From assembly GCA_902783985.1 (NCBI GenBank), contig CACZTI010000032.1, positions 1 to 39,573 on the forward strand: a stretch of 39,573 nt of DNA, given 5' to 3'. This document shows positions 18,393 to 38,543 of the stretch, in pieces. The DNA is from an uncultured Erysipelotrichaceae bacterium. Lineage in GTDB: Bacteria; Bacillota_I; Bacilli_A; RF39; UBA660. Under the pieces are notes generated by a model. It was not told the DNA's origin and searched no databases. It worked only from the letters and a program-made list of their open reading frames with translations. Position 1 is the stretch's first letter, and every line of letters begins with the position of its first letter. A program made the position numbers and the translations under genes.

Positions 18393-19485
18393 TCATTTTT
18401 TCAAATAACTTAATATAAATTCATTAATATCACCATCAAGAACCTTTAAAACATTACTTGTTTCATAATTAGTTCGATGATCTTTAACTAAAGAATATGG
18501 ATGCATTACATAACTTCTTATTTGACTACCAAAGCTTGTTATTTGATTTTCCCCTTTGATATTATTTAATTCTTGTTCTTTTTTTTCTATTTCAAGCAAT
18601 TTTAATTTACCTTTTAATACATTCATCGCACTTTCTTTATTTTGATGTTGACTTCTTTGACTTTGACATGTAACCACAATTTTGGTTGGCAAATGGGTTA
18701 TTCTAACAGCAGATTCGGTTCTATTAATATGTTGTCCTCCAGCTCCACTACTTTTATATATATCTATTTTTAAATCTTTTTCATCAATAACAATACTATT
18801 ATCTTCCCTAAATTCTGGAGTAACATCAACACTAGCAAAAGAAGTATGTCGTTTATGATTAGCATCAAACGGACTCAGTCTCACAAGTCGATGAACTCCT
18901 TTTTCTCCTTTTAAATAACCATAAGCAAAATTACCACTAACTTTAATTGAACAACTTTTAAGACCAACATCTTCACCATCTAAATATGATAATACCTCAT
19001 ACTTAAAATTATTTTTTTCAAAATATCTTAGATACATTCTAAATAACATATCTGCCCAATCACAAGCTTCTGTTCCACCAGCACCAGCATGTATTTCTAA
19101 AATACAATTATTTTTATCATATGGTCCTGATAATAACAAAAATATTTCAAGATCCTTCATCTCTTCTTCAATTTTTTGATAATCATTAGAAACCTCAGTT
19201 AATAATGACATATCATTTTCATTATCTAATAAATCACAAATTTCTAAATCATTTAAAATATCATCTTTAACACTTTGCATTTTTGAAACTATTAAAGATA
19301 AATTATTTTTTTCATCAATTATTTCTTGTGCTTTATCTCTATCATTCCAAAAATCAGGATTATTTATTTCTATTTCTAATTCATTTATTTTTTTTAATTT
19401 ACCATCTCCGTCAAAGAGACCTCCATAAATCATCTACTTTTTCCAAATATTTTAATAATCCTCTTTTTATTTCTCCTATATCCAT
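18393..19485 (-). CDS. prfB: Peptide chain release factor 2 with programmed +1 frameshift
   Basis: ATG 19485 after GGAGG gives MDIGEIKRGLLKYLEKVDDLWRSL, then CTT TGA C; SPF and GGQ motifs are in the +1 frame. Confidence 0.96.
19410..19424 (-). other. prfB +1 frameshift site
   Basis: GGAGGT-CT-CTTTGAC: internal SD plus slippery site. Confidence 0.95.
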
Positions 19486-19506
19486 ATAACCTCCATAACT
19501 ATATCA

Positions 19507-19535
19507 ATTATATATTATTTAATTAATTATTTCAA
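19507..19535 (-). promoter_or_regulatory. Sigma-A promoter for prfB
   Basis: TTGAAA-N17-TATAAT. Confidence 0.65.
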
Positions 19536-19598
19536 TATAAAAGAAAAGAGATAGTAGTTAGGAGTTAGATGAAGAAAAGACTATCCCTTTTCAAGAAT
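19535..19598 (-). ncRNA. Candidate stem-loop sRNA with anti-SD/anti-start-codon loop
   Basis: 13-bp stem GAAAAGGGAUAGU/ACUAUCUCUUUUC (G-U wobble possible only on the minus strand), 24-nt G-free loop, U-tail; extended -10 TGtGATAAT upstream. Confidence 0.6.
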
Positions 19599-19618
19599 TA
19601 AATATTATCACAAATCAT

Positions 19619-19645
19619 TGTCGAAATATGTCGAATTTTGTCGAA
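19619..19645. promoter_or_regulatory. Three tandem Spo0A boxes (TGTCGAA x3, 10-bp period)
   Basis: Perfect TGTCGAA at 19619, 19629 and 19639. Confidence 0.75.
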
Positions 19646-19662
19646 AATATATTTTTTTTATA

Positions 19663-19694
19663 AAATCCCTAATTATTATAACAATTAGGGATTT
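19663..19694 (-). terminator. Terminator of the nucleoside kinase-gap-small ORF unit
   Basis: AAATCCCTAATT-N8-AATTAGGGATTT. Confidence 0.7.
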
Positions 19695-19697
19695 ATA

Positions 19698-19832
19698 TTA
19701 TTTACTACTTTGATATTTTTGTGTAACTAAATAACCTATAATAGCGAAAATAAGAAATAAGATTATTGAAGCATAGATAAAGTAAGCAAAACCTGATATA
19801 TCATCTCTAAAAAATCTTACGATACTTTCCAT
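19698..19832 (-). CDS. Unannotated 44-aa single-pass membrane protein
   Basis: MESIVRFFRDDISGFAYFIYASIILFLIFAIIGYLVTQKYQSSK; ATG lies 2 nt after the gap stop with an AGGT RBS; stop is followed directly by the terminator. Confidence 0.7.
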   Translation of the reverse strand: MESIVRFFRDDISGFAYFIYASIILFLIFAIIGYLVTQKYQSSK

Positions 19833-19834
19833 AA

Positions 19835-20836
19835 CTACCTACTCATTAAATATCTTGCTGTTCTAACCATTTGAGTACTATAACCCATTTCATTATCATA
19901 CCAAGCTACAATCTTAACAAGTTGTTTTCCATCAACATCTAATACATTAGTACAAAGTCCATCAACAACGGCACCATACATAGAACCAATAACATCACTT
20001 GATACAATAGGATCTTCCGTATACATAATAGTTTCATTTTGATTATTTTTAAATAATTCATTAATTTCTTCTTTAGTAGTATTTCTTTTTAATTCTAAAG
20101 ATAAATCAATAACAGAACCATCTGGTACAGGTACTCTCATTGCAGTTCCATCAAGTCTTCCATTAAGTTCAGGAATAACTTTTCCTATAGCGCTAGCAGC
20201 TCCAGTTGATGCTGGAATAATATTAGCAGCACAAGCTCTTCCTCTTCTTGAATACATTCCTTTTTTATGAGCAACATCAAGAGTTGCTTGATCATTAGTA
20301 TATGCATGAACTGTTGTCATATATCCTTTAACAACACCCAAATTATCATTAATTATTTTAAGTACTGGAGCAAGACAGTTAGTTGTACAACTTGCTGCAG
20401 AAATAACCTGTTCTGTTCCATCTAATATTTCATGATTTACATTATATACAATTGTTTTAAGATCTCCCTTTGCAGGAGCAGATATTATAACTTTTTTAGC
20501 TCCAGCATTAATATGTGCCATTGCTTTATCTTTATCAGTAAATAATCCCGTACACTCCATAACAACATCAATACCTAATTCTTTCCAAGGTAAATTAGCT
20601 GGATCTTTTTCACTATAAACTTTTATTTTCTTACCCATTACAATAATATTTTCATCATCACTTTTAATACTATCTACTAAAAAATTACGATGATTTGTAT
20701 CATATTTTAATAAATAAGCCAAATCTTCAGCACTTGTTAAATCATTGATGGCAACCACTTCCATTTTAGGATCATCCATCATTAATCTAAAAACAAGTCT
20801 TCCTATTCTTCCAAAACCATTAATCGCTACTTTCAT
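19835..20836 (-). CDS. gap: Type I glyceraldehyde-3-phosphate dehydrogenase
   Basis: [24 protein letters not shown]. Confidence 0.97.
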
Positions 20837-20852
20837 TTTTCATCTTCCTTTC

Positions 20853-22505
20853 CTAAAAACAACTTCCCCCAATAAATTCTCTTAATAATGAATCCGCTGG
20901 TATGGCCTCACTTGGTATTGGTAAAAATACATCAAGTATTTTCATAAGCCTTACGGCTTCACTATAATTTTTATCATCACTTTTAACAGAATATAAAAGT
21001 GGTAACACATAAGTTTTTAAAATACAAAATTCATATATCAACGAAGTGTTAAATACATAATCTGCTTCATCTTGATAAGCAAAAACATATTTTTCTTCAC
21101 CTTCTCTAACATCATCCCATAAATCAAGAGTACGAGAAACATTATACCCTCTTGTTCTATTATCCCTAATCATTCTTCTTAAAAGTCTATTATCTGTTGT
21201 TGACATACGATTATCTTTATCAATATTAATCGCAGTTAAAGGTGATAAGTAAACTTTATATTTATATTCTCTAGGAATATCAGGAAGAAGTTTAGGGTTC
21301 AATGCATGAATACCTTCTATTAATAAAATATCTGTTTTAGCAAGAACCATTTCTTCCTTAAATTTCTTCTCCCCAGAATAAAAATCAAATGTTGGCATCT
21401 TAACTTTTTTACCATCCAATAAATCTTTTAAAGTTTTATTAAACAATTTCAAATCAAGGGCATCTAAACTTTCAAAATCATACTCTCCATTAGGCTTTTT
21501 AGGAGTTTCAGTTCTTTCTTTAAAGAAATTATCCATTGATATAACTTTTGGAGTTAAACCAAAACTAGCTAAATACATCGCAAGTTTATAGCAAGATGTT
21601 GTCTTACCACTACTTGATGGTCCAGATATCAAAACAATTTTTATTTTATAACCACTTTTCTTTATTTCTTTAACTTGATCTAGTATTCTATTGTTTTGAA
21701 GAGTTTCACTAATTCTTATTAAATAATCAATTTGTCCACTAGCAACAATATCATTTAAATCACCAGCAGTTTCAATATTAATTAATTTTCCCCATTCTTT
21801 TTCTTGTTTAAAAACCTCAAATAATTTATCATGATGAACATATGGCTTTATCTTATCATTAATATAGACAGTAGGAAATTGTAAAACAAATTCATAATTA
21901 TCTAAATAAGTTAATTTAAACTCACTTAAACATGATGTTTCACAAGGCATCTTACTAAAAACATAATTATACATATTTCCCATTTTATATAAATGAACAT
22001 AAGTATTTGTCATATATTTTAATAATTTAGCTTTTTTTACATCACCCATTTTTGTAAAATATTCCAAAGCTTCTGTTTTTAAAACGGTAACTTTTGTAAT
22101 AGGTAAATTAGCATCAACCAGTGATTTCATCTTACTTTCAACCAATTTTAAATCTTCCTTAGTAATTTTATCACTGGTTTCAATACATAATGCTTTATCA
22201 GCAGAATGTTTAACAGTAATTACATTACTTCCATGATAAATCTCATTAAAAGCATAATTAACTAAGAAAATTAAACCATTCAAATATACATTATTAGCAT
22301 AATAATTAGTTAAATCAAGAAAAGTAATTTTATCTTTGTTATTAGCAACTTCAGATAATTCCACATATTGTCCATTAACAAAAGCTATTATTGCTTTTCT
22401 CATACCGTCTTTATAAAACATTTTACTTATTTCTAAAAGGGTGGTACCTTCAGTTACCTCTATAACATTTCCATCAACCGTAACCTTAATATTTTCTTTA
22501 ATCAT
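20853..22505 (-). CDS. Nucleoside (uridine) kinase with N-terminal TGS/ThrRS-like domains
   Basis: TGS-like N-terminus; GPSSSGKTT P-loop, IEGIHALN, RLLRR..RD...RG, SLLREFIGGSCF. Confidence 0.85.
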   Translation of the reverse strand: MIKENIKVTVDGNVIEVTEGTTLLEISKMFYKDGMRKAIIAFVNGQYVELSEVANNKDKITFLDLTNYYANNVYLNGLIFLVNYAFNEIYHGSNVITVKHSADKALCIETSDKITKEDLKLVESKMKSLVDANLPITKVTVLKTEALEYFTKMGDVKKAKLLKYMTNTYVHLYKMGNMYNYVFSKMPCETSCLSEFKLTYLDNYEFVLQFPTVYINDKIKPYVHHDKLFEVFKQEKEWGKLINIETAGDLNDIVASGQIDYLIRISETLQNNRILDQVKEIKKSGYKIKIVLISGPSSSGKTTSCYKLAMYLASFGLTPKVISMDNFFKERTETPKKPNGEYDFESLDALDLKLFNKTLKDLLDGKKVKMPTFDFYSGEKKFKEEMVLAKTDILLIEGIHALNPKLLPDIPREYKYKVYLSPLTAINIDKDNRMSTTDNRLLRRMIRDNRTRGYNVSRTLDLWDDVREGEEKYVFAYQDEADYVFNTSLIYEFCILKTYVLPLLYSVKSDDKNYSEAVRLMKILDVFLPIPSEAIPADSLLREFIGGSCF

Positions 22506-38067: not shown

Positions 38068-38543
38068 TATTTATTAACTTTCTTTTTTGTAGTACTTTTT
38101 TTACCAGTATTTTTAGAAGAAGTGCTAACTTTCTTTTTTGTTTCTGGTGTTTTTTTAACAATTTTTTTAGTTGAAGATGTTTTTGTTTTCTTTTCAGTTT
38201 TTGGTTCATCTTTAACTAATGGTTTAGTTTCTTCTTTTATTTCTTTTTTAATGATATCATTTTTCTTTTCTTCACTACTTTTCTTTTGATTTAAACGATA
38301 TTCTTCATATGCTCCAAAATAAATACCAATCAATTCACCAGTTAATATTAATAAAAAAATAACCACAAACAAAAGCCAATCATAATAACGATAATCTCCT
38401 GTTGCATTAAAATTTCCACACATATAACCAAATAAAGTAGATGAAACAAGTCCTAAAATTATTCCCATAATAAATAGTGCTAACTTACTTGCTCCACTTT
38501 CTGTTTTATTAAATAATTTAAAAATATCTCTTTCTTTCTTCAT
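38067..38543 (-). CDS. Hypothetical 2-TM protein with Lys/Thr-rich tail
   Basis: Two hydrophobic segments and a low-complexity basic C-terminus; AGGAG RBS. Confidence 0.75.
   Translation of the reverse strand: MKKERDIFKLFNKTESGASKLALFIMGIILGLVSSTLFGYMCGNFNATGDYRYYDWLLFVVIFLLILTGELIGIYFGAYEEYRLNQKKSSEEKKNDIIKKEIKEETKPLVKDEPKTEKKTKTSSTKKIVKKTPETKKKVSTSSKNTGKKSTTKKKVNK

Follow-up and report, generated by a model that had tools for sequence, protein, structure and literature searches.

A candidate small non-coding RNA gene behind three 0A boxes, upstream of prfB in an uncultured Erysipelotrichaceae bacterium

The minus strand of contig CACZTI010000032.1 (assembly GCA_902783985.1, an uncultured Erysipelotrichaceae bacterium), the whole 39,573-nt stretch of which is called the window below, carries just upstream of prfB a hairpin with a long loop free of G and a U-rich tail. 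The question raised by this locus is whether the hairpin is an RNA gene of its own, a part of prfB, a leftover of a lost gene or an incidental structure. The explanation preferred here, which is given slightly less than an even chance, is that the minus-strand unit spanning about 19645-19534 represents a candidate Spo0A-controlled small non-coding RNA gene. A discrete small RNA (sRNA), still a candidate, is likely to exist, and judging from its promoter it is probably switched at the entry into sporulation. The source genome (G000; G-numbers denote genomes and C-numbers contigs) comprises 1.31 Mb with 25% G+C in 101 contigs, is 94.6% complete and carries the unit on contig C32.

The hairpin unit and its three 0A boxes

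The elements of the unit, all on the minus strand, are as follows (SD, Shine-Dalgarno sequence; the G007 homologue is described further below).

19639..19645: first 0A box, TTCGACA, at about -50 to -44 from the predicted start (exact match; aligned with sister promoters)
19629..19635: second 0A box, TTCGACA, whose TCGACA lies 21 nt 5' of the -10 hexamer (exact match; alignment)
19619..19625: third 0A box, TTCGACA, ending 11 nt before the -10 hexamer (exact match; alignment)
19602..19610: extended -10, TG-a-TAATAT (aligned with the C1, C18, C19, C39, C34, C96 and C11 promoters and with relatives in the genus)
19592..19597: predicted transcription start zone (placed by promoter geometry, 5-10 nt past the -10)
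19580..19592: 5' stem arm GAAAAGGGAUAGU, with SD-like AAGGGA (fold; kept in the G007 homologue)
19556..19579: 24-nt G-free loop CUUUUCUUCAUCUAACUCCUAACU (fold, composition)
19567-19556: 3' half of the loop, UAACUCCUAACU, 12 nt (identical in the G007 homologue)
19543..19555: 3' stem arm ACUAUCUCUUUUC (fold; kept in the G007 homologue)
19534..19542: U-rich tail UUUUAUAUU (overlaps the prfB -35 hexamer)

The minimum-energy fold of the minus strand is exactly this 13-bp hairpin, in which 19592-19580 pairs with 19555-19543 through a stem that includes four G-C pairs and one G-U, at -13.7 kcal/mol and z = -3.45, and none of 200 shuffles was as stable. The plus strand folds less well (-10.6 kcal/mol, z = -1.50; 16 of 200 shuffles as stable) and leaves the A-C position unpaired, which supports the assignment to the minus strand. 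A preliminary description of the locus had already reported the hairpin, its G-free loop and the U-tail on the minus strand and had cited the same pair, G-U on one strand and A-C on the other, in support of its strand call; all of these are present at the positions it gave, and the call agrees with the folds. G-free 24-mers with at least eight C make up 0.24% of the intergenic 24-mers of G000. Within the unit no minus-strand open reading frame (ORF) of at least 20 aa was found. Rfam 15 gave no match at the gathering score in the whole window and chance-level matches only in 19350-19850, and no match to the related sRNA loci either.

A product of the opposite strand can also be considered, namely a 10-codon ORF, MKKRLSLFKN (19569-19601, plus strand), whose SD, AGGAG, lies in the hairpin loop. 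On a scoring matrix built from 899 real start regions its start reaches 10.16, which corresponds to the 21st percentile of real starts and to the top 2.2% of other ATGs. However, its score is equalled or exceeded by 1158 of 51,824 non-start ATGs, the gap between SD and ATG is only 4 nt, the plus strand has the weaker fold, no box-class promoter faces the ORF on that strand, and the frame is not conserved, being reduced to four codons (MLIT) in the G007 homologue. Such a peptide product is very improbable.

What the preliminary description overlooked is the TTCGACA array just upstream of the hairpin. Three perfect copies of this heptamer, which is the reverse complement of TGTCGAA, stand at exactly 10-bp spacing on the minus strand, and the stretch between the third of them and the stem reads TGTGATAATAT. 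The promoter has no properly spaced -35 element, the third box lying inside the spacer. TGTCGAA is the core of the Spo0A box, and functional sites consist of box pairs 3 bp apart, as described in two sources (PMC3485338, PMC2731898). The extended -10 proposed earlier is present, although its register, according to ten sister promoters, is better given as TG-a-TAATAT at 19610-19602 than as TGtGATAAT at 19612-19604. The view that promoter and hairpin form one non-coding unit on the minus strand is strengthened by the class of the promoter, by the absence of an ORF of the above length and by the G007 homologue.

The box-promoter class and its regulator

The comparison covered eight genomes of the genus, 121 sampled genomes of the family for the box search and 141 family genomes for a covariance model. 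The TTCGACA heptamer as such is not over-represented in G000 (79 copies against about 102 expected); 14 neighbouring pairs of it lie exactly 10 bp apart, at nine loci. The double box, searched for with up to two mismatches, occurs at 16 loci of G000, 13 of which were inspected, the three left out being single-pair loci with two mismatches. A single architecture is common to 11 of the 13: two or three boxes, then 11-12 nt, then TGn with a -10 hexamer, in every case pointing to a downstream unit. The inspected loci that depart from it are C37 and C55. An SD and an ORF come directly after the promoter in 8 of the 11 and do not at C32 and C34. The downstream units are these.

SD and ORF directly after the promoter: the ComK gene before recF-gyrB-gyrA; three PDDEXK_2 paralogues; two small proteins; two copies cut by contig ends
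Small ORF and topA after the promoter: C69
Hairpin without a preceding ORF after the promoter: C32 (the hairpin unit) and C34

The triple-box pattern is present in 6 of the 8 genus genomes when up to three mismatches are allowed, the control with the reversed pattern giving no match, and in 26 of the 121 family genomes with up to two mismatches, where the control gave one match. The richest of these is G000 itself, with 10 matches against at most three in each of the 25 other positive family genomes. Classified by the unit downstream, the sites in other genera (n = 31) are distributed as follows.

ComK-like gene (N-terminal resemblance): 14 of 31 sites
Polytopic membrane histidine kinase (one checked: HisKA 39.9 bits, HATPase_c 82.9 bits): 10 of 31
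Short kinase (ORF reading): 1 of 31
Putative AgrB-like gene (resemblance): 2 of 31
Small protein homologous to the G000 C8 ORF (ORF reading): 1 of 31
Other gene: 1 of 31
No SD-ORF: 2 of 31

Within the genus the pattern also precedes a 200-aa kinase without a sensor domain, and orphan histidine-kinase and ComK genes stand behind the same boxes genus- and family-wide. The two putative AgrB-like genes behind triple 0A boxes belong to two other genera (L056, G115:C46; L065, G076:C65).

The regulator to which these boxes point is encoded in G000. Its Spo0A matches PF08769 with 136.5 bits, and the DNA-binding domain matches the structures 1FC3 and 1LQ1 with 154.6 and 151.5 bits, respectively, NTTASRVERAMRHAIE being conserved. 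SpoIVA (341.7 bits) and SpoIIGA are encoded as well; SpoIID was not found in G000. Taken at the level of sequence, the promoter of the hairpin unit strongly appears to belong to the Spo0A-box class, and binding of Spo0A to it is predicted.

The same boxes might serve at the level of DNA only, to bind or titrate phosphorylated Spo0A or to act as an operator for neighbouring genes, with the hairpin being incidental. The three perfect boxes are indeed among the strongest predicted Spo0A sites in G000, and Spo0A acts at non-promoter sites, for example at replication origins (PMC2731898). Yet the distance and orientation of the boxes relative to the extended -10 are fixed and common to 10 other promoters that drive genes. 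This matching geometry argues that the boxes here, too, belong to a promoter, and a role restricted to DNA is quite improbable.

Several members of the box class deserve a description of their own. The ComK gene of G000 (C96:17768-18279, L038; Pfam 141.1 bits) stands behind three perfect 0A boxes directly 5' of recF-gyrB-gyrA. The transposase-like PDDEXK_2 paralogues at C1:6462-7430, C18:1-152 and C19:1-152 have near-identical triple-box promoters, and since two of the three copies are at contig ends, a repeated, possibly mobile unit is suggested. The small proteins of the set, of 57-58 aa and 52-53 aa, are conserved, have no Pfam match and occur in more than one genus or species (G000 C8:1729-1975 and C39:2100-2328; G092:C60, L074; G002:C36, L035). 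At G007:C59 (L384), which is homologous to G000 C69:4672-4860, a short canonical terminator stands within about 10 nt downstream of the 0A-box promoter, and only after it comes an ORF for a small membrane peptide, the same ORF that precedes topA in G000 C69; this layout may represent an attenuator design within the box regulon.

Relatives and neighbours of the unit

One homologue of the hairpin RNA was found, in another genome of the genus (G007:C27). It consists of two boxes, TGATAATAT and stem arms matching those of G000, with a bulged A in place of the G-U pair, and its 47-nt loop has the identical UAACUCCUAACU at its end; the homologue also contains another hairpin, with ACCCUCUUUACUUCUG as its loop, and has no U-tail. 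The locus is non-syntenic, as it lies between a lysyl-tRNA-synthetase-like gene, recognised solely by its translated C-terminal part, on the upstream side and an unrelated gene for a membrane protein on the downstream side. The preliminary description had made its reading of the loop depend on conservation, and the outcome is divided: the 3' half is identical in G007, but the 5' half, which is the part complementary to the starts of genes beginning with MKK, is not conserved. BLAST of the G007 RNA against the genus returned promoters only and no further RNA of the hairpin type. The pattern TAACTCCTAACTN{0,8}ACTATC was used in two scans of contigs from public genomes and metagenomes; among the matches listed, 0 of 239 had a double 0A box (up to three mismatches) within 220 nt upstream, and these listed matches are chance ones, such as cyanobacterial repeats, with no homologue among them.

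The same 0A-box promoter also precedes a second, larger type of sRNA candidate, which measures about 145 nt and occurs at G000 C34:5385-5576 (L043; RNA 5528-5385), G002:C5 (L037) and G007:C23 (L323). Its layout comprises a 5' hairpin, a long AU-rich stem, a CU-rich loop of 50-65 nt with ACUCCU or CCUCCU, and a canonical terminator. The stems of the three loci differ in sequence yet pair, with changes on both sides in 4 of 18 predicted pairs of the three-sequence alignment. Small hydrophobic peptides encoded in the RNAs of this type were considered and rejected, the frame not being conserved between G000 and G002.

The surroundings of the hairpin unit contain the following features.

19507..19535, minus strand: separate sigma-A-type prfB promoter, TTGAAA-17-TATAAT (best regional match, 11/12)
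19494-19490, minus strand: prfB SD, GGAGG
19485-19483, minus strand: prfB ATG
19663..19694, no strand assigned: upstream hairpin of 12 bp with an 8-nt loop, ending the unit of gap and the 44-aa ORF (consensus scan, flagged on the plus strand only)
19698-19832, minus strand: 44-codon membrane ORF between gap and the upstream hairpin (weak sub-threshold DUF6724 match, 16.9 bits)
19835-20836, minus strand: gap

The separate prfB promoter on which the preliminary description had relied for insulation on the downstream side is there, with 11 of 12 consensus positions. On the upstream side it had placed a terminator at 19663-19694; a hairpin does exist at this position, but it resembles a terminator on the plus strand only, the U-run on the minus strand being short. 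The prfB gene itself has the classical layout of a programmed +1 frameshift (19405-19485, minus strand), with a 24-codon ORF0 ending in CUU UGA C and a GGAGG three bases upstream.

The proximity of prfB brings in an explanation in cis, according to which the box promoter would be a second, Spo0A-dependent prfB promoter and the hairpin a part of the leader. It could then act by transcription attenuation, by pairing of the loop with the prfB ribosome-binding site on a read-through RNA, or by interference with the housekeeping promoter at its -35. The tail UUUUAUAUU does overlap the prfB -35 hexamer TTGAAA (19535-19530), and a loop of 24 nt makes a poor terminator. Moreover, read as its reverse complement, AGUUAGGAGUUAGAUG, the loop is similar to the start region of prfB, AGUUAUGGAGGUUAUAUG; in a target prediction based on duplex energies of the loop with 1361 start regions of G000, this pairing reaches -14.8 kcal/mol and rank 115 of 1361 (top 8.4%). 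The 3' part of the G007 loop likewise pairs with the start of its own downstream gene (-14.2 kcal/mol, top 4.8% of a proxy background), and at G007:C59 a box promoter is directly followed by a canonical terminator before a small ORF. These ranks, however, are modest and belong to a comparison chosen after the fact. A near-consensus prfB promoter lies between the hairpin and the gene, and the G007 module stands before an unrelated gene, 152 nt 5' of its start and with a separate promoter in between. Furthermore, the region upstream of prfB in G002 contains neither boxes nor hairpin, and therefore prfB does not need the module. Overall, a cis-acting element of prfB is considered unlikely.

Targets, mechanism and known systems

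If the unit is an RNA gene under Spo0A, phosphorylated Spo0A (Spo0A~P) would bind the three phased 0A boxes over -50 to -24 of the extended -10 promoter, most likely with an activating effect, as at Spo0A-activated sigma-A promoters, in which 21-22 bp separate the -35-like element from the -10. Transcription would start just 5' of the stem and give an RNA of about 55-60 nt, essentially one hairpin with a U-rich tail. Its open, G-free and CU-rich loop, with the conserved UAACUCCUAACU, would pair with purine-rich ribosome-binding regions without the aid of Hfq and in this way reduce the translation of its targets as the cell enters sporulation or stationary phase. A search of G000, at the completeness given above, found no Hfq and no CsrA, which makes pairing by an exposed loop without a chaperone plausible. 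Base pairing between an exposed ACUCCU and SD sequences is plausible, and so is the predicted trans-acting anti-SD mechanism, to which the specificity tests below lend no support.

Several observations weigh against this reading, and the target statistics are the first of them. The mean duplex energy of the loop is -10.0 kcal/mol for start regions and -6.95 kcal/mol for internal coding windows, and 7.3% against 1.2% of the windows reach -15 kcal/mol or lower. Among 100 composition-preserving shuffles of the loop, though, 56 attain the best real energy (-22.3 kcal/mol) and 16 the real mean or better. In the seed search, the complement of the conserved 12-mer (up to two mismatches) was found in 10 start regions; flank-shuffled versions that keep AGGAG averaged 23.3, and 199 of 200 such versions reach the real count. 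The preference of the loop for start regions is therefore a property of its composition, as shuffled loops and seed controls do as well, and the design proposed earlier, an anti-SD joined to an anti-start for genes beginning with MKK, finds no support beyond composition. The gene at 38543, then put forward as a candidate target, has -19.2 kcal/mol and rank 11-12 of 1361, which is within the range of shuffled loops and does not distinguish it. The start regions of spo0A and comK rank 916 and 470 of 1361, and spoIVA and spoIIGA are also poor predicted partners. Support is lacking for any particular target or class of targets.

The remaining points concern the RNA itself and its control. A 13-bp stem and a tail with 6 U in 8 nt fit a terminator, whereas the 24-nt loop exceeds the usual 3-8 nt; the terminator scan flags nothing here, its limit being a loop of at most 8 nt, which places the hairpin outside its reach. 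With this atypical loop, and with no U-tail after the hairpins of the G007 homologue, some read-through is likely. The hairpin type occurs in only 2 of the 8 genus genomes, and its conservation, being that of two species, includes no real covariation in the stem. Covariance model R1 found, among its 29 best loci in other genera, none with an exact 0A box in the 120 nt upstream; this model, built from the single G000 hairpin, missed the known G007 homologue with its 47-nt loop and mis-registered it in a filter-free run, owing to which model-based covariation was not used. Five ruminant-gut RNA runs hold parts of 18400-20900 as assembled contigs, and the only contig over the unit (249 nt, 19558-19806, sheep gut) bridges the upstream terminator, gives neither strand nor ends and could be DNA; it differs from the window at four positions, none of them in the boxes, the TG or the -10 hexamer, and it counts neither for nor against the RNA. 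Finally, activation or repression by Spo0A is not readable from the sequence alone. Repression is also possible where boxes overlap a core promoter, A2c of phi29/Nf being an example (PMC2731898).

The narrow distribution and the target statistics, which show nothing specific, would be compatible with a promoter module whose gene has been lost, the hairpin being a leftover or a stop signal that protects prfB and the RNA having no function. G000 is unusually rich in box promoters (10 against at most three elsewhere), some of which precede multi-copy PDDEXK_2 genes at contig ends. In addition, the 5' arm GAAAAGGGA sits where the sister promoters carry the SD UUGAAAGGAGG and looks like a decayed leader. 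Against such decay stand the three boxes and the extended -10, which are intact and perfect, as well as the stem arms and the 12-nt loop motif, which are kept in two species at non-syntenic loci. The sister sRNA type of the same design in three species, with stems that have diverged yet pair, speaks in the same sense. An orphan or decayed module thus appears improbable, to about the same degree as the cis-acting element of prfB, and the Spo0A-controlled RNA gene is retained as the preferred explanation.

The closest known counterpart is the family of CiaR-dependent small RNAs (csRNAs) of streptococci, short RNAs with unpaired anti-SD and anti-AUG stretches, whose promoters carry the repeat TTTAAG-N5-TTTAAG (PMC3091779). 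The csRNAs agree with the present case in having direct repeats for a response regulator about 10 nt 5' of the -10 that drive short non-coding RNAs (here predicted), in the presence of several related sRNAs in one regulon, in hosts without Hfq (here none was found), and in an unpaired CU-rich segment complementary to the SD and containing CAU. Competence also has a place in both circuits, through comC there and through the ComK gene with the same promoter here. They differ in the repeat, TTTAAG-N5-TTTAAG for CiaR compared with three TTCGACA-N3 in a 10-bp period for Spo0A, and in structure, two stem-loops flanking the unpaired stretch compared with a single hairpin whose CU-rich loop carries CAU/ACUCCU. 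There is no sequence similarity between them and no Rfam match for the hairpin RNA, which would work like the csRNA family without being a member of it.

The Spo0A-activated spoIIG and spoIIE promoters have their -35-like element at a distance of 21-22 bp from the -10, and TCGACA has a similar position in the present promoter. Besides this, the TGTCGAA core and the 3-bp separation of boxes are common to those Bacillus promoters, to the box pairs of phi29/Nf and to the hairpin unit (PMC3485338, PMC2731898). The hairpin unit departs from known Spo0A promoters in that all three boxes are perfect, the third is in the spacer, the -10 is extended, and the product is a non-coding hairpin instead of a sporulation operon.

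Small RNAs wired into the sporulation decision are known from C. difficile and Bacillus (SpoZ, SpoY/SpoX, SR1, Bvs196). SpoZ of Clostridioides difficile is directly activated by the orphan two-component regulator RgaR, which also drives agr (PMC10602386). In contrast to a Spo0A-driven RNA, SpoY/SpoX, SR1 and Bvs196 act on spo0A or kinA mRNA; Bvs196 is described as sigma-F/G dependent, and a term search of PMC10267692 for a Spo0A box or regulon came back empty. Unlike for the sRNAs that target spo0A, the spo0A start region is here a poor predicted partner (rank 916, as given above). The exposed C/U-rich loops of the RsaE/RoxS and LhrC families of Firmicutes also pair with SD regions and do not need Hfq, whereas here the motif ACUCCU stands in an AU-rich context, and no sequence or Rfam relationship to them exists. 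No paper connecting an sRNA gene with a 0A-box promoter turned up in a literature search; Bacillus transcriptome atlases and supplements, which the search did not cover, may list Spo0A-dependent non-coding segments. As an sRNA candidate the hairpin RNA is new and restricted to its lineage, belongs to a known kind and stands in a noteworthy regulon context.

A wider proposition is possible, although doubtful at present: throughout a large lineage of uncultured Firmicutes from gut and rumen, which form spores and have small genomes, Spo0A may directly drive, through triple, helically phased 0A boxes, a set of Hfq-independent sRNAs with CU-rich loops and of at least two structural types, the present hairpin being the smallest. 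These sRNAs would form a post-transcriptional arm of the sporulation decision within the same regulon as ComK, orphan kinases and agr-like genes, and they may derive from SD-bearing leaders. If true, the master regulator of sporulation would switch on sRNAs by means of three perfect boxes and an extended -10 in a 1.3-Mb organism without detected Hfq or CsrA, and the logic of the csRNAs, in which a response regulator governs anti-SD sRNAs, would be extended to the control of sporulation. The predicted regulon is compact (ComK, orphan kinases, small proteins and two sRNA types) and could be dissected almost fully from sequence and a few assays.

The box promoters have one further element in common. 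At about +8 to +18 after the -10, at a fixed distance, the sequence UUGAAAGGAG(G) is shared by the members of the class, serving as the SD in the mRNAs of the regulon and forming the 5' stem arm in the sRNA candidates, which suggests an origin of the sRNAs in mRNA leaders or recognition of the UUGAAAGGAG(G) element by an additional factor.

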